DNA of 64,000 nucleotides, from assembly GCA_036499395.1 (NCBI GenBank), contig DASYDW010000063.1, forward strand, positions 5,911 to 69,910. Direction: 5' to 3'. Position 1 is the first letter of the stretch, and each line of letters opens with the position of its first letter. Under the pieces are notes generated by a model. The model saw nothing but the letters and a program-made list of their open reading frames with translations. It was not told the origin of the DNA and did no database searches. This document shows, in pieces, positions 30,522-47,491 of the stretch. Both the position numbers and the translations under genes were made by a program. Origin of the DNA: Pirellulales bacterium. Its GTDB lineage: Bacteria > Planctomycetota > Planctomycetia > Pirellulales > JACPPG01.

Positions 30522-30942
30522 AAGAACTCCTTCACATTAAGCCTTCGTCGATAAAAAGTGGACCGCCGCAACATGTTAATAATTTGCACTAATGCCAACT
30601 AAGATGGCCAAGGGCTTGGGCTATACCGCTGTCAGCACTTCAATCGTGAAAACGATCATCGCGAAACTGCCGCGAGGCAAATAATTCAGGCCAACTCGTC
30701 AGAATTGGTTTAACCAATGCGACCGCAGTAGGTTGCACATGATCGGTCGCCCGATGATTCGGGAGGAAATCTCCTTCCGCTCTTGAATCAACAATAGTTC
30801 GGCGTTTTTGCCTTACTAATATGCTTCGGTCACATCGACCGGTGGCACTAAAGTCACCTGCTTTGGACCGGCGGAAGCGACAATGCCTCAAGAACCGCGC
30901 CGGGTGCTGTCCCTGGGAACACGAACTTGCTGGAAAGTTGCT

Positions 30943-31842
30943 ATGGGCATAAATATCGAGTGGCCGCAAAAGCAGCGCGAGTTGCACAACCATCACTTCG
31001 ACTCGACGATCTGGAACGAGTTCTCGTTCCGCGACGACGACATCATCATCGGGACCTACGCGAAGGCCGGCACGACTTGGATGCAGCAGATCGTTGCGCA
31101 ATTGCTATTCAACGGCGAGCCGGCGTTGGAAGTCGCCGAAATGTCCCCCTGGCTCGACCTCCGCGTGCCGCCAAAGGAGATCAAGCTGCCCGTGGTCGAG
31201 GCGCAAACTCACCGCCGCTTCATCAAGACGCATCTTCCCGTCGATGCGCTGCAGTTCTCGCCGGCGGCGAAGTATCTTTACATCGCGCGTGACGGTCGCG
31301 ATGTGGTGTGGAGCATGTACAACCACCATGCCAATGCCAATCGATCCTGGTACGAGGCTCTGAACGATACGCCGGGACGCGTCGGACCGCCGATCGAACC
31401 GCCGCCGGACGACGTTCGCCAGTATTGGCGAGATTGGATGACGCGCGATGGGCATCCGTTCTGGCCTTTTTGGGAAAACATTCGCAGCTGGTGGGAGATC
31501 CGCCATCTTCCCAACGTGAAGCTCGTGCATTTCACAAACCTCAAGCTCGACATGCCGACAGAGATTCGCCGGGTCGCGGAGTTTCTTGAGATTCCGATCA
31601 ACGAATCGTGTTGGGACGCGATCCTTGAGCACTGCTCTTTTGACTGGATGAAGAAGAACGCGACGAAGTGCGTCCCGCTGGGAGGAGCGTTCTGGGACGC
31701 TGGGGCCGAGGTCTTCATCAACAAGGGGGTCAACGGGCGATGGAGTGACATCTTGACGGCCGAGGAGTCAGCCGAGTACGAGCATCGCGCCGAAGCCGAA
31801 CTTGGACTTGAATGCGCACGCTGGCTTGCGACCGGTAGGTAG
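30943..31842 (+). CDS. PAPS-dependent sulfotransferase (Sulfotransfer_1 type)
   Basis: 5'-PSB loop YAKAGTTWMQQIV and 3'-PB region YIARDGRDVVWSMYNH. Length is about 299 aa. Confidence 0.85.
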   Translation: MGINIEWPQKQRELHNHHFDSTIWNEFSFRDDDIIIGTYAKAGTTWMQQIVAQLLFNGEPALEVAEMSPWLDLRVPPKEIKLPVVEAQTHRRFIKTHLPVDALQFSPAAKYLYIARDGRDVVWSMYNHHANANRSWYEALNDTPGRVGPPIEPPPDDVRQYWRDWMTRDGHPFWPFWENIRSWWEIRHLPNVKLVHFTNLKLDMPTEIRRVAEFLEIPINESCWDAILEHCSFDWMKKNATKCVPLGGAFWDAGAEVFINKGVNGRWSDILTAEESAEYEHRAEAELGLECARWLATGR

Positions 31843-32880: not shown

Positions 32881-34011
32881 ATGCGGTTTTTCACCTTCGT
32901 CATCAAAAACCTCGTGCGGCGACGATTTCGATCACTACTGACCATCGCCGGCATTGGATTGGCCGTGGGGGCCATGATCGCACTGGTCGGTATATCGCGC
33001 GGCTTTGTCGACTCGTTCCTGGAATTGTATCAAGGACGAGGCATCGACCTGGTCGTCGTGCGGTCCGGCGTCGCCGAGCGCTTGACGAGCGCCCTGGACG
33101 AATCTCTCGGCGACAAGATCCGCCAGTTACCGGGAGTGAAGCAGGTAGCCGGTGTGATGATGGATGTGATGTCGTTTCCCGAACTCAATTTATTCGGCGT
33201 GCCGATCGTGGGATGGGAGCCTGACGCGTTCATGTTCGATAATCTGAAACTGGTATCAGGCCGATCGCCGACGGCCGACGATGGCCGAGTAGTAATGCTG
33301 GGAAACATTCTGGCGAAGAACATGGGCAAGACGACCGGTGACACGCTCGACGTTCTCGAGGACGAACCGTTTCAGATCATCGGCGTCTTCGAAAGCCTCA
33401 GCATGGTGGAAAACGGGTCGATGATCGTGACGCTCGCTGAATTGCAAAGATTGATGGATCGCCGTGGGCGGGTGAATATGCTTAATGTAATTGCCGAAAA
33501 TCGCTTTGACGAAGGATCGCTCGAGCAGCTACGGAGCGCGATCACGGCCGTGGCTCCCGGACTGTCGGCCATGACGACCGAGAATTTCGTCACCAGCGAT
33601 ACGCAGATTCGGGCGGCCCGGGGCATGGCGTGGATGACGTCGCTAGTTGCACTGTTGATCGGCTCGGTCGGAGTGCTGAATACAATGGTGATGTCGGTCT
33701 TCGAGCGGACTCAGGAGATCGGCATCCTACGTGCCCTGGGTTGGCGCAAGTCGCGCGTTGTGCGGATGATTTTGTTGGAAGCGATTCTGTTGAGCCTGGG
33801 CGGAGCGTTATTGGGGGCCGCAGGCGCCGTCGGCCTAACGCGGATGCTGAGTCGGGTGCCGGCGTTCAGCGGCTCGATCGCCAGTCACATTCCGCTGCCC
33901 GTCATTGCTCAAGGATTTTTGATCGCGCTATTCTTGGGATTGATTGGCGGACTTTATCCCGCGGTCTATGGCGCGCGGCTGCAGCCTACCGAGGCGATCC
34001 GACATGAATAA
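32881..34011 (+). CDS. ABC transporter permease, FtsX/MacB-LolC type (N-terminal TM, periplasmic domain, 3 C-terminal TMs)
   Basis: Opens MRFFTFVIKNLVRRRFRSLLTIAGIGLAVGAMIALV. The C-terminal FtsX block is EIGILRALGWRKSRVVRMILLEA ... YPAVYGARLQPTEAIRHE. Length 376 aa. Confidence 0.88.
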   Translation: MRFFTFVIKNLVRRRFRSLLTIAGIGLAVGAMIALVGISRGFVDSFLELYQGRGIDLVVVRSGVAERLTSALDESLGDKIRQLPGVKQVAGVMMDVMSFPELNLFGVPIVGWEPDAFMFDNLKLVSGRSPTADDGRVVMLGNILAKNMGKTTGDTLDVLEDEPFQIIGVFESLSMVENGSMIVTLAELQRLMDRRGRVNMLNVIAENRFDEGSLEQLRSAITAVAPGLSAMTTENFVTSDTQIRAARGMAWMTSLVALLIGSVGVLNTMVMSVFERTQEIGILRALGWRKSRVVRMILLEAILLSLGGALLGAAGAVGLTRMLSRVPAFSGSIASHIPLPVIAQGFLIALFLGLIGGLYPAVYGARLQPTEAIRHE

Positions 34012-34687
34012 TCCATCAACCAACGGTGATTTCCTCCGTACCAGCGGACTGACCAAGGATTACCCTGATGGCAAAGTCACGGCCCTCACAGACGTGAACC
34101 TGGTGATCCCGCGCGGACAGTACGCGGCCATCGTCGGGCCGAGCGGTTGCGGCAAGTCGACGCTGTTGAACCTGCTCGGCGCACTCGACCGGCCCACCTC
34201 AGGAGACGTTTATTTCGAGGGACGGTCGTTCGCCGCGATTGGGGACCTGGATCAGTTCCGCGCCCTGAAGCTCGGTTTCGTTTTTCAGTCGTTTTATCTG
34301 CTACCGATTTTGACCGCGCGCGAGAACGTGCAGATTCCAATGTTTGAAGGTTCACTGGGTGCGGCCGACCGGGCCGCGAGAGCCGGGGAGTTGCTGGAGT
34401 TGGTCGGTATGTCGCATCGGGCCCACCATCTGCCAAAGCAATTGTCGGTCGGCGAACGCCAAAGGGTGGCCATTGCCCGCGCCTTAGCGAATGCTCCTGA
34501 GTTGCTGCTGGCGGATGAACCGACGGGCAATCTGGATTCAAAGGCCGCGCAGGGTATTTGCGACATGTTCGAGCACCTGCACCGCGAACGCGGCATGACC
34601 CTGGTCCTGGTGACGCACGACCAGAACGTCGCTGATCGGGCCGAGCGCATCATTCGCATGCGCGACGGTCGCGTACTCGAGGCATAA
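34004..34687 (+). CDS. ABC transporter ATP-binding protein (MacB/LolD type)
   Basis: Walker A GPSGCGKST, signature LSVGERQRVAIARAL, Walker B LLLADEPT, H-loop VTHD. It overlaps the permease stop by 8 nt. Confidence 0.92.
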   Translation: MNNPSTNGDFLRTSGLTKDYPDGKVTALTDVNLVIPRGQYAAIVGPSGCGKSTLLNLLGALDRPTSGDVYFEGRSFAAIGDLDQFRALKLGFVFQSFYLLPILTARENVQIPMFEGSLGAADRAARAGELLELVGMSHRAHHLPKQLSVGERQRVAIARALANAPELLLADEPTGNLDSKAAQGICDMFEHLHRERGMTLVLVTHDQNVADRAERIIRMRDGRVLEA

Positions 34688-34749
34688 ATCGCAGAGCCGG
34701 CGCGAGGAGGCTTTCGAATATCCCGGGACAATCGGCTATTGCTGCGCAA

Positions 34750-35817
34750 TTGCGTTGGCGCGGTCCGCCGTTTTTGTTAATCATGGGGGGCGCTCCGTGG
34801 CTACCCGCCCTCGACAATTGTTGCGAGATATTGCCTTTGTTCCGTCGAACCAGACTCCTTCTGCGCAGGCTTTCCCCCTTGGTGGGAATCGTCGTTCTGG
34901 CCGCGGTAGCCCGTCCGGCGGCCGGGGCAGATTCGGCCGTTGCCAGTAGTGGATACGACCTCCGCGAGCAATCGCTGCCGAGCATTCGCGCCGGCACGGT
35001 TATCGGCGCTGCGGCTCCTAAGAATTGGTCGCACCTGGTTATCAAAAGCCAGCCTCGCGTCGCGCAGGGCGATGTCAACGATGTATCGCAACTCACACTG
35101 TCGCTGGCGCGATTGCTGTCGGTCAGTATTGTCGCGAATATCGAGGCGAACGACGTGGGAAAGCATCCGCATTATGTGCTCGACCGCGTCGCCCTCGGTC
35201 TGGGAACGCGAATCGGTGGTCGGGACGTGATCATCAATAGCGACACGCAGTCGCAACTCGGCGCCAACCTAAGTTTGCTGGCCCGCACCGTGCTCAGTAG
35301 CACCGAGGCCGAGATGCAATTAATCAGGCAGGTGCTGCGGTCGCAGACCTTGCTGATCTTTGACGTACCCACGATCGCGTTGCTGCAATCGGAACATCAG
35401 CAGATGATCGTCCGTCACGCGCTGATCGTGGATGGGGCGAACGGCCAGTTGAACACGCTGGTCTGGCTCATCGACAAAAGTGACGCGGGGGAATATGCCC
35501 AGGCCGTCGGCACCATGAGTTTGCTCGCGCCCAACACTCTGGAAGACCGACTGCTGAGCGTTGATGCCAACGAATTCACCCTAGGAATTCCTTCGAGCAA
35601 GGCGATCGCGATGGTCCGCATCCCACCGGGAAAGCCAATTGCCATTGCTCCACCATTGCTCCCCTTCGCCTCGGCCCCCCGTTTTACCGATGAGAGCGCG
35701 CGGCAACTCGACGCCGGATTGCGGGACTTGATCCGCCAGGCACAGCGCGACCGAGCGACGGTTCGTGAAAACCCTGGTCCTCCGGCCGCCAACTCAGCCC
35801 GCCCTCGCGGCAAATAA
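34750..35817 (+). CDS. secreted or periplasmic hypothetical protein
   Basis: 355-codon ORF with a signal-like segment RRLSPLVGIVVLAAVARPAAGA. No recognisable motif. Same strand as, and directly after, the ABC ATPase. Start uncertain. Confidence 0.55.
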   Translation: MRWRGPPFLLIMGGAPWLPALDNCCEILPLFRRTRLLLRRLSPLVGIVVLAAVARPAAGADSAVASSGYDLREQSLPSIRAGTVIGAAAPKNWSHLVIKSQPRVAQGDVNDVSQLTLSLARLLSVSIVANIEANDVGKHPHYVLDRVALGLGTRIGGRDVIINSDTQSQLGANLSLLARTVLSSTEAEMQLIRQVLRSQTLLIFDVPTIALLQSEHQQMIVRHALIVDGANGQLNTLVWLIDKSDAGEYAQAVGTMSLLAPNTLEDRLLSVDANEFTLGIPSSKAIAMVRIPPGKPIAIAPPLLPFASAPRFTDESARQLDAGLRDLIRQAQRDRATVRENPGPPAANSARPRGK

Positions 35818-35839
35818 CATTTCCTCGAGTCACACCACG

Positions 35840-36727
35840 ATGTTTGTTCCAACGCTATTGCTCGCGTCGCTCTTGCTGGGCGCCGCGCACGACGACAATC
35901 CGATCCTGAAGCAGTTGGTCGACGCAGGTGTACCGGTCGGCTCGGGGGCACCGCTGAAACTACCGCCGCCCACGTTGCCCGATGGCCTGGACGCGGCCGC
36001 GCAGAAAAAAGCCATACAAGGAATTGCCGACGCCAACCATCCGGTCGATGCTTTGTTGCGTAAGTCGATTGTGTCGCCGTTTCAGCTGATCATTCGTAGC
36101 GAAGGGAATGCCACGGGCGACGTAACCGGTAAGCGAGTCGACATCTGGTGCGTCGTTTACGGAGACCTGTCGACCATCACCAAAGAGGGGTTCCTGGAGG
36201 AGCGGTTCTCGCTCGGATCGAAGGGAGAAAGCAACAACAAGCCCGCTGCGAAGTCCGTAATTCTATCCGCCGAGGAGTTGAAGAAGCGCAACATCCAGAT
36301 CGCGACCGCGGCTGACGCGAAAGAGGGTTTTGCATACGCCAGCTTTTCGCTCTTCGACCGTGTGCAGATTAGCGGGACGGGCCACGTGTATCAGACGCGG
36401 ACGAAGACGTCGGTCCTGATGGCCTCACTCCTGGCGCCTGGCTTTGCTGACGACGCGGACTTTGCCAACCGCTGGGCGGCCATCGATCGTGACAAGGAAG
36501 GGAATTTCAAGGTCGGCGCGCCGCATCCCTACGCAGGCTATGGATCGTACGTAAAGGTGACCGAGCTGATCGAACCGTCAGGGGCCCTGTTTGTGGAATA
36601 CCACTTGGTCTTCGACGAACCGAAAGCCTGGTTCAGCGGGGCGAATCTGCTGCGCTCGAAGCTACCACTGATGGTGCAAGACAATATTCGCAAGTTTCGC
36701 CGCGAAGTGGCAAGCGAGGCGCACTAG
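35840..36727 (+). CDS. secreted hypothetical protein
   Basis: Signal peptide MFVPTLLLASLLLGAAHD. 295 aa with no recognisable motif. Last gene of the plus-strand ABC operon. Confidence 0.6.
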   Translation: MFVPTLLLASLLLGAAHDDNPILKQLVDAGVPVGSGAPLKLPPPTLPDGLDAAAQKKAIQGIADANHPVDALLRKSIVSPFQLIIRSEGNATGDVTGKRVDIWCVVYGDLSTITKEGFLEERFSLGSKGESNNKPAAKSVILSAEELKKRNIQIATAADAKEGFAYASFSLFDRVQISGTGHVYQTRTKTSVLMASLLAPGFADDADFANRWAAIDRDKEGNFKVGAPHPYAGYGSYVKVTELIEPSGALFVEYHLVFDEPKAWFSGANLLRSKLPLMVQDNIRKFRREVASEAH

Positions 36728-36779
36728 AACGGAAGCTACGGCAGGAACAACGTGTTGCAGGCGATAGCCTCGGGACGCC

Positions 36780-37910
36780 TCAGTCGTGTCGTAGCGCGGC
36801 CGTGGGAAGAAGTCGCGCGCTGCGATAGGCTGGGTAGGCCGCCCCTACGAGCCCTACCATCAAAGCCAAAATCCACCCTTCGACCATGACGCGCCAGGGG
36901 ACCGTTCCATCGACTACTCCACTGGCAACGGGCAAGGTGCTCAGGAGCTTCGTCAAGCCGACGGCGCCAAGCGTTCCGATTGCCGCTCCGATCAAACTGA
37001 CGAGTAGCGATTCCGACAGGATCATGCGGACGATGCGTCCTTGACGCCAACCGATCGCGCGAAGGATGCCGATCTCACGCGTCCGCTCCAGTACCGTCAT
37101 GAACATGGTATTCAGCACGCCGATCGTCCCGACGATCAGGCCAATGAGCGCCGTCAGCCACGCCATCCCTTGCACGGCGCGGATCTGCGAAATGCCCGCC
37201 ACGTGATCCTTAATACTCATAGCGGTCAGTCCGGGACTGACCGCTTCTATATCCTTGGCGACGCGTTCAATTAGCGCGACGTTATTGGGTTCGGCAACGC
37301 TGACGGCAAAGCCGGTCACCTGGCCCGGCCGATCCATGAGTCGCTGCAAGTCGGCAAGCGCAATGACCATCGAGCTGTTGTCGAAGACATTGTGACTTTC
37401 ATAGATGCCGACGATGTTGAACTTTTCCAAAGCATAAAGTTCGATCGAATCGCCGAGTTTCTTGCCGAGGTTCTCGGCCAGCGTTCGCCCGATCAGCAAA
37501 GCCTGGCGATCGTCGCCCTGCAGGGCGCGCCCTTCAACGACGTTGAGGTTGCCGACGAGCCGCGACGAGGGCTGCAAGCCGCGCAACGGAACGCCGTACA
37601 GGTTCTGCTCTTCGAACGAGACAACGTCCAAGAGCGTAGGGATCACATCGACTATGTCAGGAACGGAGCGGATCTTATCGCCGATTTCGATGTCCAGGCC
37701 GCTATTTATCCGCTCTTGCACGCCGGTGCGAACGACGATCATGTCGATGCCGGCCCCCAGGTAGACGTCGAGGAAAGACGCCACAAAGCTGTCGGCGATT
37801 CCCACCAGCGCCACCATGGACCCGATCGCCACTGCCACGGCGATCACCGTCAACGCCGAACGCAACCAGCGACGCGTCACGTTGCGCCAGACGAGCGTGA
37901 ACAAATGCAT
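36780..37910 (-). CDS. ABC transporter permease, FtsX/MacB-LolC type, paralog of 32881-34011
   Basis: GGAGG lies 9 nt upstream of the ATG. Opens MHLFTLVWRNVTRRWLRSALTVIAVAVAIGSMVALV. It aligns along its whole length with the plus-strand permease, and both are exactly 376 aa. It starts 118 nt downstream of the NRPS stop on the same strand. Confidence 0.88.
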   Translation of the reverse strand: MHLFTLVWRNVTRRWLRSALTVIAVAVAIGSMVALVGIADSFVASFLDVYLGAGIDMIVVRTGVQERINSGLDIEIGDKIRSVPDIVDVIPTLLDVVSFEEQNLYGVPLRGLQPSSRLVGNLNVVEGRALQGDDRQALLIGRTLAENLGKKLGDSIELYALEKFNIVGIYESHNVFDNSSMVIALADLQRLMDRPGQVTGFAVSVAEPNNVALIERVAKDIEAVSPGLTAMSIKDHVAGISQIRAVQGMAWLTALIGLIVGTIGVLNTMFMTVLERTREIGILRAIGWRQGRIVRMILSESLLVSLIGAAIGTLGAVGLTKLLSTLPVASGVVDGTVPWRVMVEGWILALMVGLVGAAYPAYRSARLLPTAALRHD

Positions 37911-38028
37911 GAGAGGGGCACCTCCAAGACGGACCAAGACCGTGACTATCCCTGTCGCGGTCCGGTAGGTCAAGAGGCCATCGGTGCGATGCCGTCCTGC
38001 GCTGTTCAAACCGACTGAGCCTCGCGAA

Positions 38029-41000
38029 TCACGACTGCATCGTCAGATCCGGATCGATTCCGCGGGCTTCTTTGGCGGACAGCGGCGTCATCGCCGGCGC
38101 GCCATCAATTTCGAACTGCTTGCTGGCCCGCGCCAGCTGGCGACGCAACCGTTGTGCCAAGGTTCGCACGTGTGGTTCACGCATCATCGTCAGATGGTCG
38201 CCGGGAACCGTGCGGCTGCGCAGGTCTTCGGTCACATGATTTTCCCAAGAGGATGCTGCTGTCGGGACCTCGTCGCGGGGCCGCTCTTCGGCTTTCAACA
38301 GAGCGACGGGCCCCTGGTAGGATTGCGGACGAAACGCCAGCCAGGCGCGGCAATTCGCTTCGAACACTTCGTAGTGCCGCTCGATTTCCCAGCGATCCGC
38401 ACCCGGTTGAACTAGGCCGGCTCCCTCGATCTGGCGGCCAAAAAGAACTAGCTTCTCGGAGCGGGAGAGTGCCCGAATTTGGTCCGGCAGCATTTGCTCG
38501 ACGGAAGGAAACATCGACATCAACGCGGCAAAGGCGTCATCGCCTTCCTCTTGCGAATTGTCCTGCGCCGCCTGCGAGTCAATCAGCACCACTAGCGGCA
38601 CCTGCTCGCGAACATGGGCCAATTGCCGCGCCATTTCGTACGCCACGAGCCCGCCAAAGGACCAGCCTGCCAGGTAATAGGGGCCCTCGGGTTGGATCGT
38701 CCGGATTGCCTGAATGTAATCGCGGGCCATCGCTTCGACCGTCTCGTGAAAGGCTTCATGGCGAGCCAGGCCGCGCGACTCGAGCGCGTAAACCGGCTGA
38801 TCCGCGCCCAAGTGATGCGCCAAGGCGTAGTACGGAAAAGCGCTGCCGCCGGCCGGATGAACGCAGAATAGCGGCGGGCGATAGCCGGTTCGGCGAATCG
38901 CCACGAGCGGCGAACCACGATGCCGTGCCGCAGCCGCGCGCACCACCGCCGCCATCGTCGCGATCGTGGTGGCCGTGGCCATCTCGCTCGGCAGAAGGAC
39001 GATGTCGTTTCTCGCGGTGAATTTTGCCAGACATTGGTGGGCCGACTGCTGGCCGTCTCCCAGTCCGACGAGATTGTCTTCGACACCCAGCGGGCTGAGT
39101 CCCAACGTTTCCTGGCAAATATCGGTGAGCTCTGCTTCCAAGGCATTGCGGGGCGCGACATACCGGGAGAGGGCCGCTTCTCGCAGCGATGCGACGGACG
39201 CGCAGTCGACAATCATGTTGCGGAGGGCGTCGAGGAAGGCGCCTATCACGCGTTCGACCGTCTCGCGTTGATGTAACCCTTCGCAGTAGGTCCAGTCAAA
39301 GCGCAATTGGCCCCCCACGATCACGCCATTAATTTCCAGCAAATGCGTGCGATGCTGCCGCGACGAGCGCATCGAGCCGACCGACTCGCTTGCCGTGCGC
39401 AGCCGTCCGCCGGAATTCGCAAGCTGGTCGACCTGGCCGAGATAGTTGAAGGCGATCTCGGGTTGCGGCAGTGTCGCGAGCGCAGTGGTCACGGTTTCGT
39501 CCTGGCACAAGTACTTGAGCGTTCCGAATCCGATACCACGGCGAGGAATGTCCCGCAGCTGCGCTTCCATAGAGCTCACAGCGCGGCGGACGTCGGTTGT
39601 TTGATCAAGGCAGAGTCGAACCGGGAAGACACTTGTGAACCAGCCAACGGTACGCGACAGATCGACGTCGTCGAACAGGTCCTCGCGGCCGTGCCCTTCC
39701 AGATCGACCAGTAACGAATCTTCGCCGGTCCACTTCTGGAACGCTTGGGACAGGGCCGTCAGCAGGATGCTATTCAAGGGCGCGCGGTACGCGCGAGAAA
39801 CATCTTCCAGGAGCCGTCGCGTTTCGTCCACCGCGAGTGACGCCGATACAGTACGGGCGGAAGCGATCGAATTCTCCTCGCATCCCTTGTAAGCATGACC
39901 ATTGCTACCGGATTGTGTGTGGCCATTTCTCGTGTGCGAGGAAGTGGACGAAGCGGCGCCTTGGACCGGCAGGCGATCGACGGGGAGGTGCTTAAACGGA
40001 GCTTCCGCCAGCCGGAGCCAATAGTCGAGCTCCTCGCGAACCAGTGCCGACTGAGCGTACTCGATCAACCGCTCCGACCATCGCTGATACGAGGTCGTCT
40101 TGGCGTTCAAGCAGGGCGCCTCGCCGCGGCTGAGCTGCTGATAGATCAGATGCAAATCCTCGAGTAGGATGCGCCACGAGAAGGCATCCACCGCCAAGTG
40201 ATGAATGACGAATAGCAATCGACTCGGGCGTGCCGGACCAAGGTCGATCAGGCACACACGCACGAGCGGTCCCTCGGCCAGGTTCAAGCTCGCTTGCAAC
40301 TGCGTGGCAACGGCTTCGATCGCGTTCGGCTCCTCGCTGGTCGGAACTCCGGCAAGATCCACGCGGCAGTAGAGCTCGGCCTTATCGCTGGCGTCATTGG
40401 ATTGTTTCCAACCATTCTTCTCGCGAACAAAGCGCAGACGCAGAGCGTCGTGGTGCGCGACGAGATGCTCCACCGAGGCCTGCAGAAAGGAGGGTTCCAG
40501 GCGATCGTCGACTTCGAGCATGACCGCCTGGTTGAAGTGCTCAGGCGCGGCGAGTCGTTGTTCGAAGAACCAATGCTGAATGGGGGTTAACGGGACCGGC
40601 CCCACAACAGCTTCCTGTGCTGCTGCGGTGGCAAGGATCGGCACGGCCACGGTCGCCTGCTCGGCAACGGTTTGATGCTCGAATAACTGGCGTGGCGTCA
40701 GGCGCAATCCGACGCGTGCGGCGCGCGAGATGACTTGCATACTCAGGAGTGAGTCGCCGCCAAGTTCGAAGAAATTGTCGTGAATTCCGACCCGCTCCAA
40801 ACCGATCACGCCGGCCCAAATATCGGCCAGGGTCACTTCGACGTCGGTACTCGGGGCTACGTAGCATTGGTCGAGCACGGGACGGCTGCGATCGATCCCG
40901 GGCAAGCTATTCCGATCGACCTTACCGTTGGGGCTTACCGGCAGAGCCGGCAGCGCGACGAAAGTGGACGGGATCATATAGTCGGGAAGATGCGACTTGA

Positions 41001-44000
41001 TGAACTGATGCAGTTCCGTGGTCGTGGGCGCCGGAAGTTCGCCTGTGCCGACGTAGGCCACCAGCCGCTTTTCGCCCGATTCCTGTTCGCGCACGACAAC
41101 GACTGCTTCGCGGATTGCGGGGTGCGCGGTCAGCGCCGCTTCAATTTCTGGCAACTCGATGCGGAAACCGCGAACCTTGACTTGATCGTCGATTCGCCCC
41201 AGGAATTCCAGCTTGCCGTCAGCCCGGTAGCGAGCCAGGTCGCCCGTGCGGTACAGACGTCCGCCGGATCGACCGCTGAAACGATCGGGCAAGAACTTTT
41301 CAGCCGTCAGCTCGGGGCGATTCAGGTAGCCACGCGCCACGCCGACACCGCCGATATAGATCTCGCCGGGCATGCCATGCGGCACTGGTTCGAGGTGCCG
41401 ATCAAGCAAGTACACATTGACGTTGGCGAAGGGGCGGCCCAGGGCGGGCGCGCGTCCCTCGCCCGCATGGCATTCCCCTTCGGTTGCGCCTACCGTTGCT
41501 TCGGTGGGGCCGTAACCGTTGATCATTCTCCGGCCCGGCGCCCAACGATCGACCAATTTCGCTGAGCAGGCCTCGCCGGCGACGACCAACGTGCTCAAAT
41601 GTGGCAGAGGGGCGGCAGGCAATACCGACAAGACCGACGGTGGCAGGATGACAAACGTGATGCGATGATCGTCGAGCAACCGGACTAGATCAGGTCCTGG
41701 TATCAACGCGTCCTCGGGCGCCATGTATACCGATCCACCCACGGCTAACGTGGCAAAGATCTCCAGGACCGAGGCGTCGAAGTTGGGCGAAGCGAATTGC
41801 AATGTTCGACGTTCGCTGCCAGGACCGATCCATCGTGCGGCCACGGCCACGGCATTGCACACGCCACGGTGCTCGATGAGTGCACCCTTGGGCTGCCCGG
41901 TGGATCCGGAAGTGTAAATCACATAGGCCAGATTATTGGCAGTGGCCGTCCGTTGGGGATTCTCGGTCGACGCGGAGCAATCGCCTGCCGTTTCGTCGGC
42001 GAACACCATCCGGGTATTTTGCGCGGCGAAAACCGTGGCGAGTTCACGGGAGGTGACGACTACGTCGAGCTGTGCGTCGCGGAGGATCAGGTCGAGCCGC
42101 GCGGCGGGGTAATGTGGATCGAGCGGCACATAGGCGCCCCCCGCTTTGAGAATACCCAGCATGCCGGCCACTAGCTCGACCGATCGATTGAGGCAGATGC
42201 CGACCAAGACGTCGGGGCCGACACCCATCGTGCAGAGGCGATGCGCCAATCTGTTGGCCCGCTCGTTGAGCTGACGGTAAGTGAGCACCTGCTCTTGGAA
42301 ACAAAGGGCGACGGCATCGGGGTTTTCTTCCACCTTGCGCTCGAACAATTCATGAACGCACACGTCGTCGGCAAATCGGATCCGTTCGCCTGCTGCCGCG
42401 GCGAGCAGACGTTGGCGGTCATGCATACCTACCAGCGTGAGCTTCGAGATCGGATTGTCCGGTGCGGTGACCGCGGCGCCCAACAGCGTTTGGAAGGATT
42501 CGAGCAGGTGTTCGACGTTCTCCTGATCAAATAGATCCGTATTATATTCCAGCCCACCAACGAGTCGGCCGGCCTCTTGCCTGAGCGAGAGGGTAAGGTC
42601 ATGCCGCGCTGTGCCATTGTGAACTTCTTGGAAGGTCAAGTTCGGTCCGGTGAATTCGAGCGGCGCGTTCTGCAGGATGAGTGCCGCCTGGTAGAGCGGT
42701 GAGTGGCTCAGTACCCGCCGCGGCGCAAACGCCTCGACCAATCGCTCGAACGGAAGGTCCTGATGCTCGTACGCTTCCAGGGTGACCTGTCGTGTCCGTG
42801 CTAGCAGGTCGCGGAACGTCGGATCGCCTGACAGGTCGCCGCGCATCACAAGAGTGTTGACGAAAAAGCCGATCAGCCCTTCCACCTCTGGTCGGGTTCG
42901 ATGGGCAACGGCCGTGCCCACGCTGATGTCGGCTTGGCCCGTATAGCGCGAGAGAAGCGTCTGAAACGCCGCGAGCAGCGTCATATACAGCGTCGCCTGC
43001 TGCTCACGGCTAAACTGCTCCACCGCTTGCGACAGGGAGAGCGGTAGGCTCACGGGAAGGAGCGCGCCGTGAAACGTCTGCAGCGCCACACGCGGTCGAT
43101 CAGTCGGCATCGCGAGCACTGCAGGCCCGTCTTCCAGCTTGCCTCGCCAGTATTCGAACTGCGGGCTAAGCGCATCGTCGGTGCATGTTGTCCGCTGCCA
43201 GGCGGCGAAATCGGCGTATTGAATATCGAGGTCCGCCAGTGGTGATCGTTGACCGTTGGAAAAGGCCTCATAGATCAATAGAAGTTCGCGGAGAAAAACA
43301 CCCATCGACCAGCCATCGGAGATGATGTGGTGCATCGCCAACAGCAGCACGTGCTCGTCTGCCGTCAAATGCAGGTGCGTCACGTTCCACAGCGGGCCGG
43401 TCGCCAGGTCGAAGCGTTGCCGCGCCGCGGCCGATGAGATGCGCTCGACCTCGGCAGCGCGATTCATCGTGTCGAGTTCGCGTAAATCAAATTGCGCGAT
43501 CGGAACGGCGCCCAACGAGCTTACGCGTTGCTGCGGCAGTCCGCCCGCATCCACAAACGTCGTGCGAAGCGATGCATGGCGGCGAGCAATTTCCGCAAGG
43601 CTCTTTTCCAGCAGCGCCGTCTGCAGGTCGCCGCGGAAGCGCGCTGAAAGACAGAGGTTGTTTACCGGTACTTCCGGCAGCAATTGGTCGACAAACCACA
43701 ACCGCTGCTGCCCAAACGAGAGCGGCGAATCGTCCCGCTGATCGGCAGGGACGATCTTCGTAGGGCTTGCCGCGGAAGGGGTGGCGTAGTTCCGTTCAAC
43801 GACAGGGGCCAACTCGGCGACCGTGGGATGAGCAAACAACTCGCGCAGCGGCAGAGTGACGCCGCAAGCCGCCGAGACGCGCGACATGAGTTGCGTCGCC
43901 AGCAGTGAATGGCCACCGAAATCGAAGAAGTTGTCGTGGATTCCCAGGTCGTCCTGGCGAAGCACTTCGACCCAGATCTTCAGCAGCGTTCGCTCGGTAT

Positions 44001-45798
44001 CGGTGCGTGGGGGGACTGCTTCTCGCCCCTCGGCTCCGCCGCTGCTATTGTCGCACCGGCTGGCGTTCCATTGTGTCACGACCGCCAGATGGTCACTCAG
44101 ATAATCATCGCGGCAGGATCGGCGGCGGATCTTGCCGCTGGTCGTTTTACCGATGGTGCCGGCCTTGATCAGCACGATGGCTTCGACTGGCAGGTCGTGC
44201 TCAGCGAGTATTGCGCCACGTATCGACCTTACGATCTCGTTGAGATCGAGTTGCTTGGGACGGGTGACTTCCTGCACGACGACGAGCCGTTCTTGACCGT
44301 CGCGTTCCATCGAGAACGCCGCCCCGCCATCGATCTTTAAGGCCGGGTTGCAGGCCCAAATGGTGCGCTCGATGTCTTGCGGATAATAGTTCCGGCCACA
44401 GATGATAATCAGGTCCTTGAGTCGGCCGGTGACATACAGCTCGCCGGCATGCAAGAACCCCAAGTCGCCGGTGCGCAAAAACGGACCATCACCGGAGTCC
44501 GCCAGGCGAGCCGCGAACGTGCTCCGCGTCTCCTCGGGACGATTCCAATAGCCCTGCGCCACGCCGGGGCCGCGTACCCAGATTTCTCCTACGCGATCGG
44601 ATGCGGCGCGCGTGAGCGTTTGCGGATCGACGATCACGACCTCGGTTTCCTCGATCGCGGGACCACAGCTTGCCAGGGTTCGTGAATTCGATTTCCCATT
44701 CAAATTGGCAACGACCTGATTCTCCTCCAGATTCGTTGCACAAAAGTCACCGACGGTGTAGAGACTTTCGTGGTCTCCGCCAGTGACGCCCAAGGTGGCT
44801 TCGGCCAGCCCGTAACAGGGAACGAACGCCGTCGGGCGAAAGCCACAGGGGGCGAAGGTCTGAGTGAATCGCTCCAACGTGTCGCGACGAACCGGCTCGG
44901 CGCCATTGAGGATGACTGCCAGGCTGGTCAGATCGAGGGCTTTGATCTCCGCGGGCAGTACCGTTCGCGAGCAAAGATCGAAGGCAAAATTCGGGGCGCC
45001 GGTGATTGTGCCACGATAGCGGGAAATCGCCTCGAGCCACCGAATGGGCCGTTGCATGAAGTCTAGCGGCGACATGGAAATCGTCTGTCGGCCAGCATAC
45101 ATCGGCAGGAGCACGCCACCGATCAAACCAAAGTCGTGGTAGGCGGGCAGCCAAGTAACGCCAACGACGCCTTGGCTCTGGCCGCGGTCGATCTTCGCCA
45201 CGTTGTAGAGCAGGTTGGCGTGGCTCACCATCACACCGCGCGGCGTACCGGTTGAGCCGGAGGTGTATTGCAATAACCCCAGTGTCGTAGAGGTAATCGT
45301 CGGCGGCGTCCAATCGTCTTCGCACCCGACAGGGAGTGCGTCGGTGGCCAATATCATGCGAATCGAGGGACCGATCGTCACGAGTGCCTGGACCCAAGTC
45401 AGACTGTTCGCCGTGCCGAGCACCGCAACGGCCTGTGCGTCGTTGCACACGGCCTGCAGCCGGGGAAGCGTGCGATCCATGCGCAATGGATCAGGCGGAT
45501 AGAGCGGTACCGGTGTCACGCCGGCGTATAAGCAACCAAAGAATGCGGCAATGTAGTCAAGCCCTGGCGGATACAACAACAAGGCCCGGCCGCCGGTGGC
45601 GCCCGCGGCATTCAATCGCACCGCGATGCGGCGCGCGATCACGTCCAACTGACCGTAAGTGAGATTGAGCTCGTCTCGTTCGCCGTCAGTCAGGAACGTA
45701 TAAGCGATCTGATCCGCTTGGAGGTTTGCCCGGTAGCGGCACATTTCCAGAAACGTTTCCACTTCTGGAATCGGTAAGTCCCTCGATAACTCCGACAT
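38029..45798 (-). CDS. non-ribosomal peptide synthetase, single amino-acid module with lipo-initiation: FAAL-T-C-A-T-E-T*(degenerate)-TE
   Basis: One uninterrupted ORF. Domain motifs are listed in the domain features below. The ATG at 45798 (MSELSRD) is preferred; an alternative TTG lies at 45816. Confidence 0.93.
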   Translation of the reverse strand: MSELSRDLPIPEVETFLEMCRYRANLQADQIAYTFLTDGERDELNLTYGQLDVIARRIAVRLNAAGATGGRALLLYPPGLDYIAAFFGCLYAGVTPVPLYPPDPLRMDRTLPRLQAVCNDAQAVAVLGTANSLTWVQALVTIGPSIRMILATDALPVGCEDDWTPPTITSTTLGLLQYTSGSTGTPRGVMVSHANLLYNVAKIDRGQSQGVVGVTWLPAYHDFGLIGGVLLPMYAGRQTISMSPLDFMQRPIRWLEAISRYRGTITGAPNFAFDLCSRTVLPAEIKALDLTSLAVILNGAEPVRRDTLERFTQTFAPCGFRPTAFVPCYGLAEATLGVTGGDHESLYTVGDFCATNLEENQVVANLNGKSNSRTLASCGPAIEETEVVIVDPQTLTRAASDRVGEIWVRGPGVAQGYWNRPEETRSTFAARLADSGDGPFLRTGDLGFLHAGELYVTGRLKDLIIICGRNYYPQDIERTIWACNPALKIDGGAAFSMERDGQERLVVVQEVTRPKQLDLNEIVRSIRGAILAEHDLPVEAIVLIKAGTIGKTTSGKIRRRSCRDDYLSDHLAVVTQWNASRCDNSSGGAEGREAVPPRTDTERTLLKIWVEVLRQDDLGIHDNFFDFGGHSLLATQLMSRVSAACGVTLPLRELFAHPTVAELAPVVERNYATPSAASPTKIVPADQRDDSPLSFGQQRLWFVDQLLPEVPVNNLCLSARFRGDLQTALLEKSLAEIARRHASLRTTFVDAGGLPQQRVSSLGAVPIAQFDLRELDTMNRAAEVERISSAAARQRFDLATGPLWNVTHLHLTADEHVLLLAMHHIISDGWSMGVFLRELLLIYEAFSNGQRSPLADLDIQYADFAAWQRTTCTDDALSPQFEYWRGKLEDGPAVLAMPTDRPRVALQTFHGALLPVSLPLSLSQAVEQFSREQQATLYMTLLAAFQTLLSRYTGQADISVGTAVAHRTRPEVEGLIGFFVNTLVMRGDLSGDPTFRDLLARTRQVTLEAYEHQDLPFERLVEAFAPRRVLSHSPLYQAALILQNAPLEFTGPNLTFQEVHNGTARHDLTLSLRQEAGRLVGGLEYNTDLFDQENVEHLLESFQTLLGAAVTAPDNPISKLTLVGMHDRQRLLAAAAGERIRFADDVCVHELFERKVEENPDAVALCFQEQVLTYRQLNERANRLAHRLCTMGVGPDVLVGICLNRSVELVAGMLGILKAGGAYVPLDPHYPAARLDLILRDAQLDVVVTSRELATVFAAQNTRMVFADETAGDCSASTENPQRTATANNLAYVIYTSGSTGQPKGALIEHRGVCNAVAVAARWIGPGSERRTLQFASPNFDASVLEIFATLAVGGSVYMAPEDALIPGPDLVRLLDDHRITFVILPPSVLSVLPAAPLPHLSTLVVAGEACSAKLVDRWAPGRRMINGYGPTEATVGATEGECHAGEGRAPALGRPFANVNVYLLDRHLEPVPHGMPGEIYIGGVGVARGYLNRPELTAEKFLPDRFSGRSGGRLYRTGDLARYRADGKLEFLGRIDDQVKVRGFRIELPEIEAALTAHPAIREAVVVVREQESGEKRLVAYVGTGELPAPTTTELHQFIKSHLPDYMIPSTFVALPALPVSPNGKVDRNSLPGIDRSRPVLDQCYVAPSTDVEVTLADIWAGVIGLERVGIHDNFFELGGDSLLSMQVISRAARVGLRLTPRQLFEHQTVAEQATVAVPILATAAAQEAVVGPVPLTPIQHWFFEQRLAAPEHFNQAVMLEVDDRLEPSFLQASVEHLVAHHDALRLRFVREKNGWKQSNDASDKAELYCRVDLAGVPTSEEPNAIEAVATQLQASLNLAEGPLVRVCLIDLGPARPSRLLFVIHHLAVDAFSWRILLEDLHLIYQQLSRGEAPCLNAKTTSYQRWSERLIEYAQSALVREELDYWLRLAEAPFKHLPVDRLPVQGAASSTSSHTRNGHTQSGSNGHAYKGCEENSIASARTVSASLAVDETRRLLEDVSRAYRAPLNSILLTALSQAFQKWTGEDSLLVDLEGHGREDLFDDVDLSRTVGWFTSVFPVRLCLDQTTDVRRAVSSMEAQLRDIPRRGIGFGTLKYLCQDETVTTALATLPQPEIAFNYLGQVDQLANSGGRLRTASESVGSMRSSRQHRTHLLEINGVIVGGQLRFDWTYCEGLHQRETVERVIGAFLDALRNMIVDCASVASLREAALSRYVAPRNALEAELTDICQETLGLSPLGVEDNLVGLGDGQQSAHQCLAKFTARNDIVLLPSEMATATTIATMAAVVRAAAARHRGSPLVAIRRTGYRPPLFCVHPAGGSAFPYYALAHHLGADQPVYALESRGLARHEAFHETVEAMARDYIQAIRTIQPEGPYYLAGWSFGGLVAYEMARQLAHVREQVPLVVLIDSQAAQDNSQEEGDDAFAALMSMFPSVEQMLPDQIRALSRSEKLVLFGRQIEGAGLVQPGADRWEIERHYEVFEANCRAWLAFRPQSYQGPVALLKAEERPRDEVPTAASSWENHVTEDLRSRTVPGDHLTMMREPHVRTLAQRLRRQLARASKQFEIDGAPAMTPLSAKEARGIDPDLTMQS
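38137..38874 (-). other. NRPS domain: type I thioesterase
   Basis: PLFCVHPAGGSAFPY, GWSFGG nucleophile elbow (Ser codon 2386, 38659-38661), and a late GDHLTMM His region. Confidence 0.88.
38941..39162 (-). other. NRPS domain: degenerate carrier-like domain lacking the phosphopantetheine serine
   Basis: YVAPRNALEAELTDICQETLGLSPLGVEDNLVGLGDGQQSAHQCL aligns without gaps to the YVAPxxxxExxLxxIWxxxLGxxxxGxxDNFFxLGGDSLxAxQL consensus. The core GGDS is replaced by GDGQ (39046-39060). Confidence 0.7.
39202..40602 (-). other. NRPS domain: epimerization (E) domain
   Basis: PLTPIQHWFF, HHLAVDAFSWRIL (HH at 40198-40203), EGHGRE (39682-39699), RTVGWFTSVFPV. These motifs together separate E domains from ordinary C domains. 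The domain contains a Ser/Thr/His/Gly-rich low-complexity insert. Confidence 0.8.
40627..40854 (-). other. NRPS domain: peptidyl carrier protein 2
   Basis: IHDNFFELGGDSLLSMQV, with Ser codon 1689 (40750-40752). Confidence 0.88.
40909..42363 (-). other. NRPS domain: amino-acid adenylation domain
   Basis: LTYRQLNERANRLA, LAYVIYTSGSTGQPKG, FDASVLEIF, NGYGPTEATV, GEIYIGGVGVARGYLNRPELT, YRTGDLARY, KVRGFRIELPEIE, NGKVDR. Confidence 0.9.
42412..43734 (-). other. NRPS domain: condensation domain (probable starter/lipid-accepting C)
   Basis: SFGQQRLWFVDQL (C1) and MHHIISDGWS (C3; the HH pair is at 43327-43332). Confidence 0.85.
43771..43998 (-). other. NRPS domain: carrier protein 1 (acyl carrier)
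   Basis: IHDNFFDFGGHSLLATQL. The phosphopantetheine Ser is codon 637 counted from the TTG ORF start at 45816 (43906-43908). Confidence 0.85.
44032..45798 (-). other. NRPS domain: fatty acyl-AMP ligase (FAAL)-type adenylation domain
   Basis: TFLEMCRYRANLQADQIAYTFL opening, QYTSGSTGTPRGVMVSHANL, YGLAEATL, FLRTGDLGF, GKIRR. It is followed directly by a carrier domain, not a CoA-ligase context. Confidence 0.8.
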
Positions 45799-47491
45799 GC
45801 TCAGCCCTTTGCCCAATCTTCAATCGCATCGCGAAGCATTTAAAGGAAGGTCGCGATCCATGAAATACGACCGCCTGACGTCGACCGGGCGGTCTAATGA
45901 CCAGTGCCGGACGAGGTCGAATTTGCAGGCGACGTGCCTGAAACAGGCGTGCATTCAAGAAAGCGCAGTCCAACCCTATATGTTACTATTGTCTTTCCCC
46001 GTCTAGACATTAGTACAGTGGCTCCGCACCGCCTCCCAGGCTACCTTGCCGCAAAACGACCCTCAAGTAAAAACCCCAAGAGGCCAGGCGTTTCTGCGTG
46101 CTACACTGGTCCGATTTTGTCCCCTATTCCGGCCAGTTCGAAGGGATACCGTTCACTAATGGCGGTCCGGCATCCCGAAAAATGGCCACTCGAAGGGGAA
46201 ATACTTCTTCGATAAAAATGAGTTGAACAGCCCACTCAGTAGCCGGCGCTGAAATTGCACTAATCGAATCGGTGGGACCGCAGCGATGGGCGCCGGTCAG
46301 AAATTATCCATGCATACTGAGTGGTGCGCCACTGCCGCGAACTACTTCTCCGATTTGCTTCGGTCCGACACACCGACGCAGTGGTGCGAAAACAAAGTCC
46401 GGTATCCGCCCATCCGGCACAGTCGAAGCGCATGAATCGTTTCAGAAAACGACCAAATAACGAGACGAGTAAAGTACCAACGTCCGCCGTTATCGAATGC
46501 TGCAAACGGACAAGCGGTCCGGTTGTGCTCGGACGGCAATGACATCACCGGAACGAGCAGTTGCGGAAAGTTGTCATTTCTAAGACTGCTCCGTTTTAGG
46601 AACCTTTGATAGGACCCATTGGTGTGCTGCTGCGACTAAATTAGAGTTTCGCGTTCGCTCCGTTTCACCGCATTGACCCGAATGGGCGGTATTGGGGAAA
46701 AACGCGCGGCCGACCCGCCATACGCCAGGCGCTTCGAACGCTTCCTCGCCATTTCCACATACGCAGGCCGTACTTGATGCGATTTGCAATCTTCGCGCCC
46801 TTGACGATGCCGACGGCATCGGCGACGGATTTTTTGGTCAGACAGTGCCTCCGATTACATCCATCACAACAAGAGATCGGAACCTTCGGGCAAAGAAGGG
46901 CTGCTCGATGTGCGGATAATCGATGGTCTGCGACGCTCCTATCTTGGGTATCGCACGATCAAGCTGCAGCCCCTGGCCAGAGTGCAGCGTCCGTATCGCG
47001 GCTAGCCCATTAAGAGACGCCCTACGAGAAAGCCCGCGCCGGTGAAGGCCCCTCCTCCTTCGAAAAAGTTGGAACTGTAACGCAGCATCATGGCGGTCAC
47101 GAATCGGGCCGGAACGGCGCTGTTTGCATCCGCGGATTTGTTGCGGATGAATTTCCGTGGAAATGCCAGGAAGGCGATTGGTATTAGTTGCCGTGCGACT
47201 CGTCGTGTTTGCGAGTGAAAGTCGCTGACGGCCATGTTCTCTGGCTCTCATTTGTTCAAGGCAGATGGGGGGCTTATCGCCGGTGCGTCGCGCATTGCCC
47301 GCGCTATGTAGTTGCCGTCGTGACAAGTCCCCCCTATGTGCGACGAGTTGCGCGCAAATCCTGCGTTGTGACTTGTTTCTGCGCTGCGCGATGTTTACAA
47401 CGTGCGCCTACCAACTGCGCTACATCGAGTGCAAAGCCTGGCGAACAGTCTTCGCAGGTCTTGGTAACCGCGGCTTTCTAAGGGGGCATCC

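Follow-up and report, generated by a model that had tools for sequence, protein, structure and literature searches.

A nonribosomal peptide synthetase (NRPS) of a Pirellulales bacterium (contig DASYDW010000063.1) contains, between its epimerization (E) domain and its thioesterase (TE), a degenerate carrier-fold domain, designated T*, in which the serine that anchors the phosphopantetheine arm of carrier (T) domains is absent. The gene is encoded on the minus strand of the 64,000-nucleotide stretch analysed here (hereafter the window). We consider it probable that T* is a vestigial carrier that cannot be loaded, that it came with the TE as one half of a T-TE pair, and that it survives as a folded spacer while T2, the intact carrier upstream of the E domain, does all the carrying. 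The NRPS gene and its domains are listed below by window position; residue numbers count from the TTG start of the listed open reading frame (ORF), in agreement with the Ser2258 of an earlier note on this DNA.

38029..45816, minus strand: NRPS ORF, 2595 aa, domain order FAAL-T1-C-A-T2-E-T*-TE (ORF list, Pfam, NCBIfam)
44077..45777, minus strand: fatty acyl-AMP ligase (FAAL) loading domain, approximately aa 14-580 (Pfam AMP-binding and AMP-dom_DIP2-like)
43777..44022, minus strand: T1 acyl carrier, aa 599-680, GGHS intact, Ser637 (PF00550, 66.8 bits; T-domain hidden Markov model (HMM), 89.3 bits; motif)
42403..43737, minus strand: condensation (C) domain, aa 694-1138, HHIISDG at 829-835 (PF00668; motif)
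40921..42345, minus strand: adenylation (A) domain, aa 1158-1632 (PF00501/PF13193)
40612..40866, minus strand: T2 working peptidyl carrier, aa 1651-1735, GGDS intact, Ser1689 (PF00550, 58.3 bits; motif)
39202..40584, minus strand: E domain, aa 1745-2205, HHLAVDA at 1872-1878, EGHGRE at 2040-2045 (Pfam Condensation family; motifs)
38941..39162, minus strand: T*, degenerate carrier-fold domain, aa 2219-2292, attachment serine absent (BLASTP, HMM, hhalign, AlphaFold)
39049..39051, minus strand: codon CAG, Gln2256 at the phosphopantetheine serine position, first residue of predicted helix 2 (hhalign, AlphaFold, DNA)
39043..39045, minus strand: codon TCG, Ser2258, unconserved (six-sequence T* alignment)
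38137..38904, minus strand: TE, aa 2305-2560, GWSFGG (Ser2386), PGDH (His2541) (PF00975, 124.6 bits; Foldseek PDB matches; motifs)

Homology and predicted fold of T*

The minus-strand translation of 38941-39162 begins YVAPRNALEAELTDICQETLGLSPLGVEDNLVGLGDGQQSAHQCLAKF, and the whole segment reads YVAPRNALEAELTDICQETLGLSPLGVEDNLVGLGDGQQSAHQCLAKFTARNDIVLLPSEMATATTIATMAAVV. The earlier note had aligned the segment between E and TE without gaps to the carrier consensus, had read a Gln in place of the attachment serine, and had placed the nearest serine two residues downstream; all three observations were borne out. In an hhalign comparison of a profile of four T* orthologues with 29 T domains, 92 columns aligned ungapped (probability 99.8%, E 8e-28), and in every alignment made Gln2256 fell on the phosphopantetheine serine, with Ser2258 two residues downstream (core codons GGA GAC GGC CAG CAG TCG, encoding G D G Q2256 Q S2258). 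This column is nearly invariant: within the retrieved set, it holds serine in 232 of the 237 T-domain matches that cover it, the five exceptions being four members of the T* family and one unrelated protein.

A comparison with the Pfam carrier model, suggested in the earlier note, gave a divided result. PF00550 returned zero matches to the excised T* even at E<=10, and the whole-protein Pfam scan recognised two PP-binding domains only (T1 and T2); given that T1 and T2 score 66.8 and 58.3 bits, this blank indicates that T* is strongly degenerate. The relationship was recovered by an HMM built for the subfamily, from 29 canonical T domains preceding TE (46.7 bits, E 3.6e-14), as well as by hhalign, and BLASTP aligned T* practically gap-free with T2 (33% identity, E 3e-11) and with T1 (32% identity, E 3e-9). 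Judged by its sequence, T* is therefore a carrier-domain homologue far beyond chance, though one that scores under the curated PF00550 threshold. The (D/H)S(L/I) motif that PP-binding domains carry at the N-terminus of helix 2 is lacking. With Gln in place of the serine that should open helix 2 (relatives have Pro, Asn or Leu), T* would be unable to take a phosphopantetheine arm.

AlphaFold modelling, also proposed in the earlier note, was performed on T*-TE and on T* alone and yielded a confident four-helix carrier fold. The T*-TE model (AlphaFold2, 70-sequence alignment) has a mean predicted local distance difference test (pLDDT) score of 88.8, with values of 90-96 across T* and four helices. 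As a control against signal borrowed from canonical T domains, T* alone was modelled from an alignment of four orthologues only, giving the same helices (pLDDT 83.5, predicted template modelling score 0.75); in both models helix 2 begins at Gln2256 (model residue 61 in T*-TE). Foldseek matched the T*-alone model to the solved peptidyl carrier proteins (PCPs) of TycA, PvdL, TycC3-Sfp, AB3403, and EntF with template modelling scores of 0.66-0.72 and a root-mean-square deviation of ~2 A. T* is accordingly predicted by the models to adopt the four-helix bundle of carrier domains.

The collinearity of T*-TE with canonical PCP-TE didomains (AB3403, 4ZXH; EntF, 3TEJ/5JA1; SrfA-C, 2VSQ) starts at the YVAPR linker and extends through the whole TE. 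Using phmmer, query residues 528-868 aligned with AB3403 969-1313, and collinear matches were also obtained to the PCP-TE of EntF, SrfA-C, and Pks13. The best PDB match of the T*-TE model in Foldseek was AB3403 PCP-TE (4ZXH, 356 columns), and EntF PCP-TE was matched too (3TEJ, 353 columns); the T*-TE junction, SPLVxI(R/Q), is likewise that of a canonical T-TE. T* differs from its canonical counterparts in that it has no attachment serine, has lost the FF and GGxS core, fails PF00550, and follows an E rather than an A domain. Given this predicted fold and the collinear match, T*-TE is a canonical termination didomain in which the carrier half is probably dead.

Conservation of the loss, evolutionary rates and excision

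Orthologues were sought among the listed matches of representative and metagenome searches, the latter a scan from which 80 loci were kept (designated by L numbers). At least five orthologues bear T*, all of them apparently planctomycete (P0001/L002, P0002/L003, P0121/L001, L004, and L005); they share 43-60% identity with the window across T*-TE, and those with enough flanking sequence keep the domain order of the window NRPS. The earlier note had asked whether the serine is missing throughout: it is absent from all five orthologues. In the six T* sequences (window plus five orthologues) the serine is replaced by Q, P, N, P, P, and L, with a different residue in each main branch of the family. 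In P0002 the T* core is half-decayed (FETFGGYN), indicating an ancestor with a canonical DxFFxxGGxS. The GGDS of T2, by comparison, is also present in P0001, P0002, and L005. Two of the outcomes that the earlier note had named as fatal to its claim were not upheld: the Ser2258 column varies (S, T, A, V, A, A), and provides no conserved alternative attachment site, while the independence of the assemblies, the ungapped flanks and the differing replacements rule out a sequencing error.

The T* family is tiny. When the T* profile was run against 1.84 billion representatives, T*-type clusters among the top 150 matches were P0001, P0002, and P0121 only; these are clusters at 50% identity, and the ranking is by summed score, so that giant multi-T NRPSs crowd the list. 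One Planctomycetaceae metagenome-assembled genome (SRR12456171_bin.23) holds both L004 and L005, with TE domains that are 59% identical; these are either paralogues or the result of a mixed bin. Such relatives, and gene families around the NRPS loci that are typical of planctomycetes, point to a planctomycete source of the enzyme.

Domain by domain, the window NRPS was compared with three orthologues. T2 is the most conserved of the compared domains (69-81% identity), as would fit a carrier that serves A, C, E, TE, and a phosphopantetheinyl transferase (PPTase). E reaches 47-58% and the TE 48-68%; T* overall, at 30-47%, evolves faster than T2, E, and TE. Within T*, the helix-1 part is 43-70% identical and the remainder 21-32%, and yet the six T* sequences differ by at most one gap, of 1 aa. 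In the fast-evolving part, the proportion of non-synonymous differences (pN, 0.36-0.59) is lower than the synonymous proportion (pS) in each of the 15 pairs; given the saturation of synonymous sites (pS 0.47-0.91, with several synonymous distances (dS) undefined), pN and pS are compared only qualitatively. The pattern across these sequences is that of a domain under relaxed but persisting constraint. Two cysteines are conserved: Cys2234 in six of six sequences (39109-39123), replacing the canonical core Trp of helix 1 (IWE), and Cys2262 in five of six (39025-39039), replacing a Leu of helix 2, which amounts to a paired W/L to C/C exchange.

In one lineage T* is missing altogether. The TEs of L085 and L086 are 44-50% identical to those of the T* family, on a par with P0002. 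In L086 the order is the tail of an E domain, a 28-residue linker (PASEPNVASASDKQPTRVAPSAGHRE), SPLVAIQPRG, and the TE, without T*; the E-TE region is ~70 residues shorter, which MAFFT aligns with a gap of 70 columns. In a neighbour-joining TE tree (100 bootstraps), the six T*-bearing sequences together with L085 and L086 are recovered as one clade in 99% of bootstraps and L085 and L086 join L003 in 94%, whereas the six T* forms group alone in only 1%. The simplest reading, drawn from this single-domain distance tree, is that the family ancestor already had a Ser-less T*, which was excised later in one branch. T* is, on this evidence, dispensable in at least one sister lineage (L086). The L086 contig is 2.9 kb long and its downstream gene differs: the gene after the TE (L086 1082-2587) encodes a 501-aa protein in place of the FtsX permease found next to the window NRPS, which shows that the cluster context has diverged.

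Termination architectures and the origin and role of T*

Termination across an E domain is documented in NRPSs. ACV synthetase has the order A-PCP-C-A-PCP-C-A-PCP-E-TE (PMC8374128; PMC7147772) and module 5 of the cystomanamide synthetase CymD the order C-A-PCP-E-TE (PMC9581180); in such modules, as proposed here, one loaded carrier serves A, C, E, and TE, with E placed between carrier and TE. This documented order implies that a carrier requires no special helper to reach the TE across E. Natural A-T-E-TE proteins were also found among the homologues (P0006, P0013, and P0117). The window NRPS has the corresponding elements, namely an intact T2 upstream of E, an E domain with HHxxxD and EGHGRE, and a TE with GxSxG and its His, but in place of a direct E-TE junction the 74-residue T* is interposed. 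The distance from EGHGRE to GxSxG is 341-344 residues in the T* family vs. 254-280 in proteins with a direct E-TE junction (P0006, P0013, P0050, and P0117).

In three homologues with an A-less terminal E-C-T-TE (P0005, P0007, and P0034) a second T domain likewise precedes the TE without an A domain of its own, and the start of this T (YIAPRDSLEQQL...SPVGIQDNLFDLGGHS) resembles T*; unlike T*, it has an intact GGHS and follows a C domain. An origin of T* from such an A-less C-T-TE module was not supported, as a TE tree places the TEs of these proteins outside the T* family. The T* family TE clusters instead among ordinary x-T-TE thioesterases, away from the E-TE and E-C-T-TE groups, which makes an ordinary termination didomain a likelier ancestor than an A-less module. 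In the same tree, P0013 and P0050 (direct E-TE) fall together with P0005 and P0007, suggesting that C-T was deleted independently in the former.

NRPS domains that have died in place are known from several systems: the C-like X domain of glycopeptide synthetases, which recruits Oxy P450s, the inactive E domain of LgrA, and the first A domain of PyrG (PMC10510592). As in T*, their key residues are lost and the fold is kept within the polypeptide; these are C-, E-, and A-type domains, whereas the domain that is probably dead here is a carrier. In the open-access literature, exact-phrase searches turned up no relevant paper on Ser-less, inactive or degenerate T/PCP domains; such a blank is weak evidence, and we claim neither a precedent nor its absence. 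Another carrier fold that lacks the serine and is joined to a TE, unrelated to T*, was encountered at L084 551-1627 (P0209; Logan SRR32132912): a free-standing protein of 358 aa with Arg at the serine column of its N-terminal T-like domain (RDDLVEMGMDRGAARDL) and only ~30% identity to the window T*-TE; a membrane-protein fragment lies upstream of it, and a small stand-alone acyl carrier protein with a DSL motif downstream.

We infer that the T-TE pair was inherited as a canonical unit, and that it would have come to sit directly after E through recombination or because a C-A in between was lost, leaving T* without a cognate adenylation or condensation partner. In the resulting assembly line, FAAL would adenylate a fatty acid and load it onto T1, and the C domain, inferred to be a lipo-initiation C, would N-acylate the amino acid that the A domain loads onto T2. 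T2 would then carry the N-acyl-aminoacyl thioester to E for epimerization, and afterward to the TE for release. T* would never be loaded, and its ~74 residues would only separate E from TE as a folded spacer. From the domain order, the product would be an N-acyl-D-amino acid. The NCBIfam fatty-acid--AMP ligase models cover aa 14-578 of the NRPS with scores under their curated cut-offs, and the motifs of T1, T2, and TE are intact. The specificity residues of the A domain, tentatively read by hand against GrsA, are D-A-L-S-V-A-G-V-G-K.

The earlier note had offered two accounts of the segment, as a fossil of a lost second module (C/E-[A lost]-T-TE) or as an adaptor presenting T2-bound substrate to E and TE. 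The fossil is the better supported of the two, because T*-TE is collinear with PCP-TE, the TE clusters with x-T-TE proteins, and the deletion is nested within the family. The part of that account in which the E domain is the C domain of the lost module did not stand, since the EGHGRE motif is present and the best PDB sequence matches include epimerization domains (the E domains of TycA and GrsA, along with E-containing constructs of PvdL and of BacC, bacitracin synthase). The retained length and modelled fold of T* would fit a passive folded spacer, and do not demonstrate an active adaptor role.

One may go further and propose that T* is a pure fossil in free decay, not even a spacer, that persists because clean in-frame deletions are rare. 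This accommodates the four different residues at the serine column with no new shared motif, the low identity of helices 2-4 (21-32%), a non-synonymous divergence ~1.5-4 fold that of the TE, the deletion of T* in the nested lineage, and the direct joining of E to TE in other NRPSs. However, with pS saturated, an unconstrained stretch of 222 nt should show indels and a loss of helix periodicity, instead of the single 1-aa gap at most that was found; pN is also below pS in every pair, AlphaFold folds T* confidently from four orthologues alone, and the helix-1 segment matches E and TE in its conservation. We therefore regard free decay as unlikely. Conservation of that segment hints at a different proposal, of a repurposed pseudo-carrier whose helix-1 face, together with Cys2234 and Cys2262, would bind TE or E, gate release, or recruit a partner in trans; in the gating variant, decoy docking on the TE (or E) would delay release until epimerization is done. 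Carrier domains usually dock their partners through helix 2 and the loop that follows it, but in T* these are the least conserved parts. The proposal draws on the conserved N-terminal YVAPR(N/D)ALEAEL..C and SP(I/L)G loop, the paired replacement of core Trp and Leu by the two cysteines, and a fold kept across the family; T* was, however, lost without replacement in the L086 lineage. A P450 gene that directly follows the NRPS in L003, with the X domain as precedent (PMC10510592), would suit a recruiting role, although among the loci compared (the window and L001-L003) it occurs at that one only, so that the likeness to the X domain is an analogy. A repurposed T* appears distinctly improbable to us, and the gating variant is to be rated just as low.

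That T* is after all a working carrier, modified at Ser2258 or at another Ser, Thr or Cys, or that its missing serine is a sequencing or assembly artefact, we consider highly implausible. Ser2258 does fall within the opening turn of helix 2, two residues past the canonical position, and T* has two conserved cysteines; against this, the Ser2258 column varies as described above, T* lacks the (D/H)S(L/I) surroundings that PPTases recognise, and there is no A domain to load T*. An artefact would have to recur in independent assemblies from different samples, all of which lack the serine, and as the alignment is ungapped on both sides no frameshift restores GGDS.

Several observations weigh against T* as a vestigial, passive spacer. 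The conserved helix-1 segment and the two cysteines hint at a retained specific contact beyond that of such a spacer, and the argument from selection is qualitative, pS being saturated. The L086 enzyme, given its short contig and different neighbour, may make another product or be inactive. Finally, the NRPS gene is split into five ORFs in L001 (3359-11143, with several tblastn frame changes) and into two in L003 (5443-13054); the frameshifts are probably assembly errors, with pseudogenization as the alternative.

Genomic context and implications

The genes adjoining the window NRPS on its downstream side encode a putative export system, in part shared with the orthologous loci.

36780..38009, minus strand: MacB_PCD/FtsX permease directly downstream of the NRPS (syntenic in L001-L003)
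32881..36727, plus strand: convergent operon encoding a second MacB_PCD/FtsX permease and an ABC ATPase, with two further ORFs (adjoins the NRPS in L001 and L002 too)

The two ORFs of the operon have no Pfam matches, and in L003 only the downstream permease of the FtsX/ABC set was seen. The set as a whole (window 32881-38009) resembles LolCDE, and may export the lipoamino-acid product. The known N-acyl tyrosines of planctomycetes are made by NasY rather than by an NRPS (PMC12479983). The cytochrome P450 gene of L003 (13240-14697) lies between the NRPS and the FtsX permease. At the other end of the window NRPS gene, an ATG at codon 7 (MSELSRD...; window 45784-45816) is a plausible true start.

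A sulfotransferase gene (PF00685; window 30883-31842, plus strand) lies ~1 kb away from the FtsX/ABC operon; none was seen among the called genes of L001-L003, and the gene is therefore probably outside the NRPS cluster. Farther away, and unrelated to the NRPS, an ORF of 2947 aa (window 6383-15226, minus strand) contains GH94 supersandwich, catalytic, and glucoamylase-like domains and resembles a cyclic beta-1,2-glucan synthase.

Dead NRPS domains of the C, E, and A types are already well known. T* reveals neither a new mechanism nor new chemistry; the family is a neat natural case of domain decay and excision that will not surprise specialists. Were T* a repurposed pseudo-carrier, it would be the carrier-fold counterpart of the glycopeptide X domain. 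For genome mining, T* counsels caution when module number or product size is derived from carrier counts, as Pfam misses T* and a naive motif reader would add a module. For NRPS engineering, it marks a junction that tolerates the presence or absence of ~70 residues. Across the family and its relatives, a natural shrinkage series of NRPS termination emerges, from the canonical T-TE, through the Ser-less T* as a probable spacer (six lineages), to the E-TE deletion of the nested lineage.

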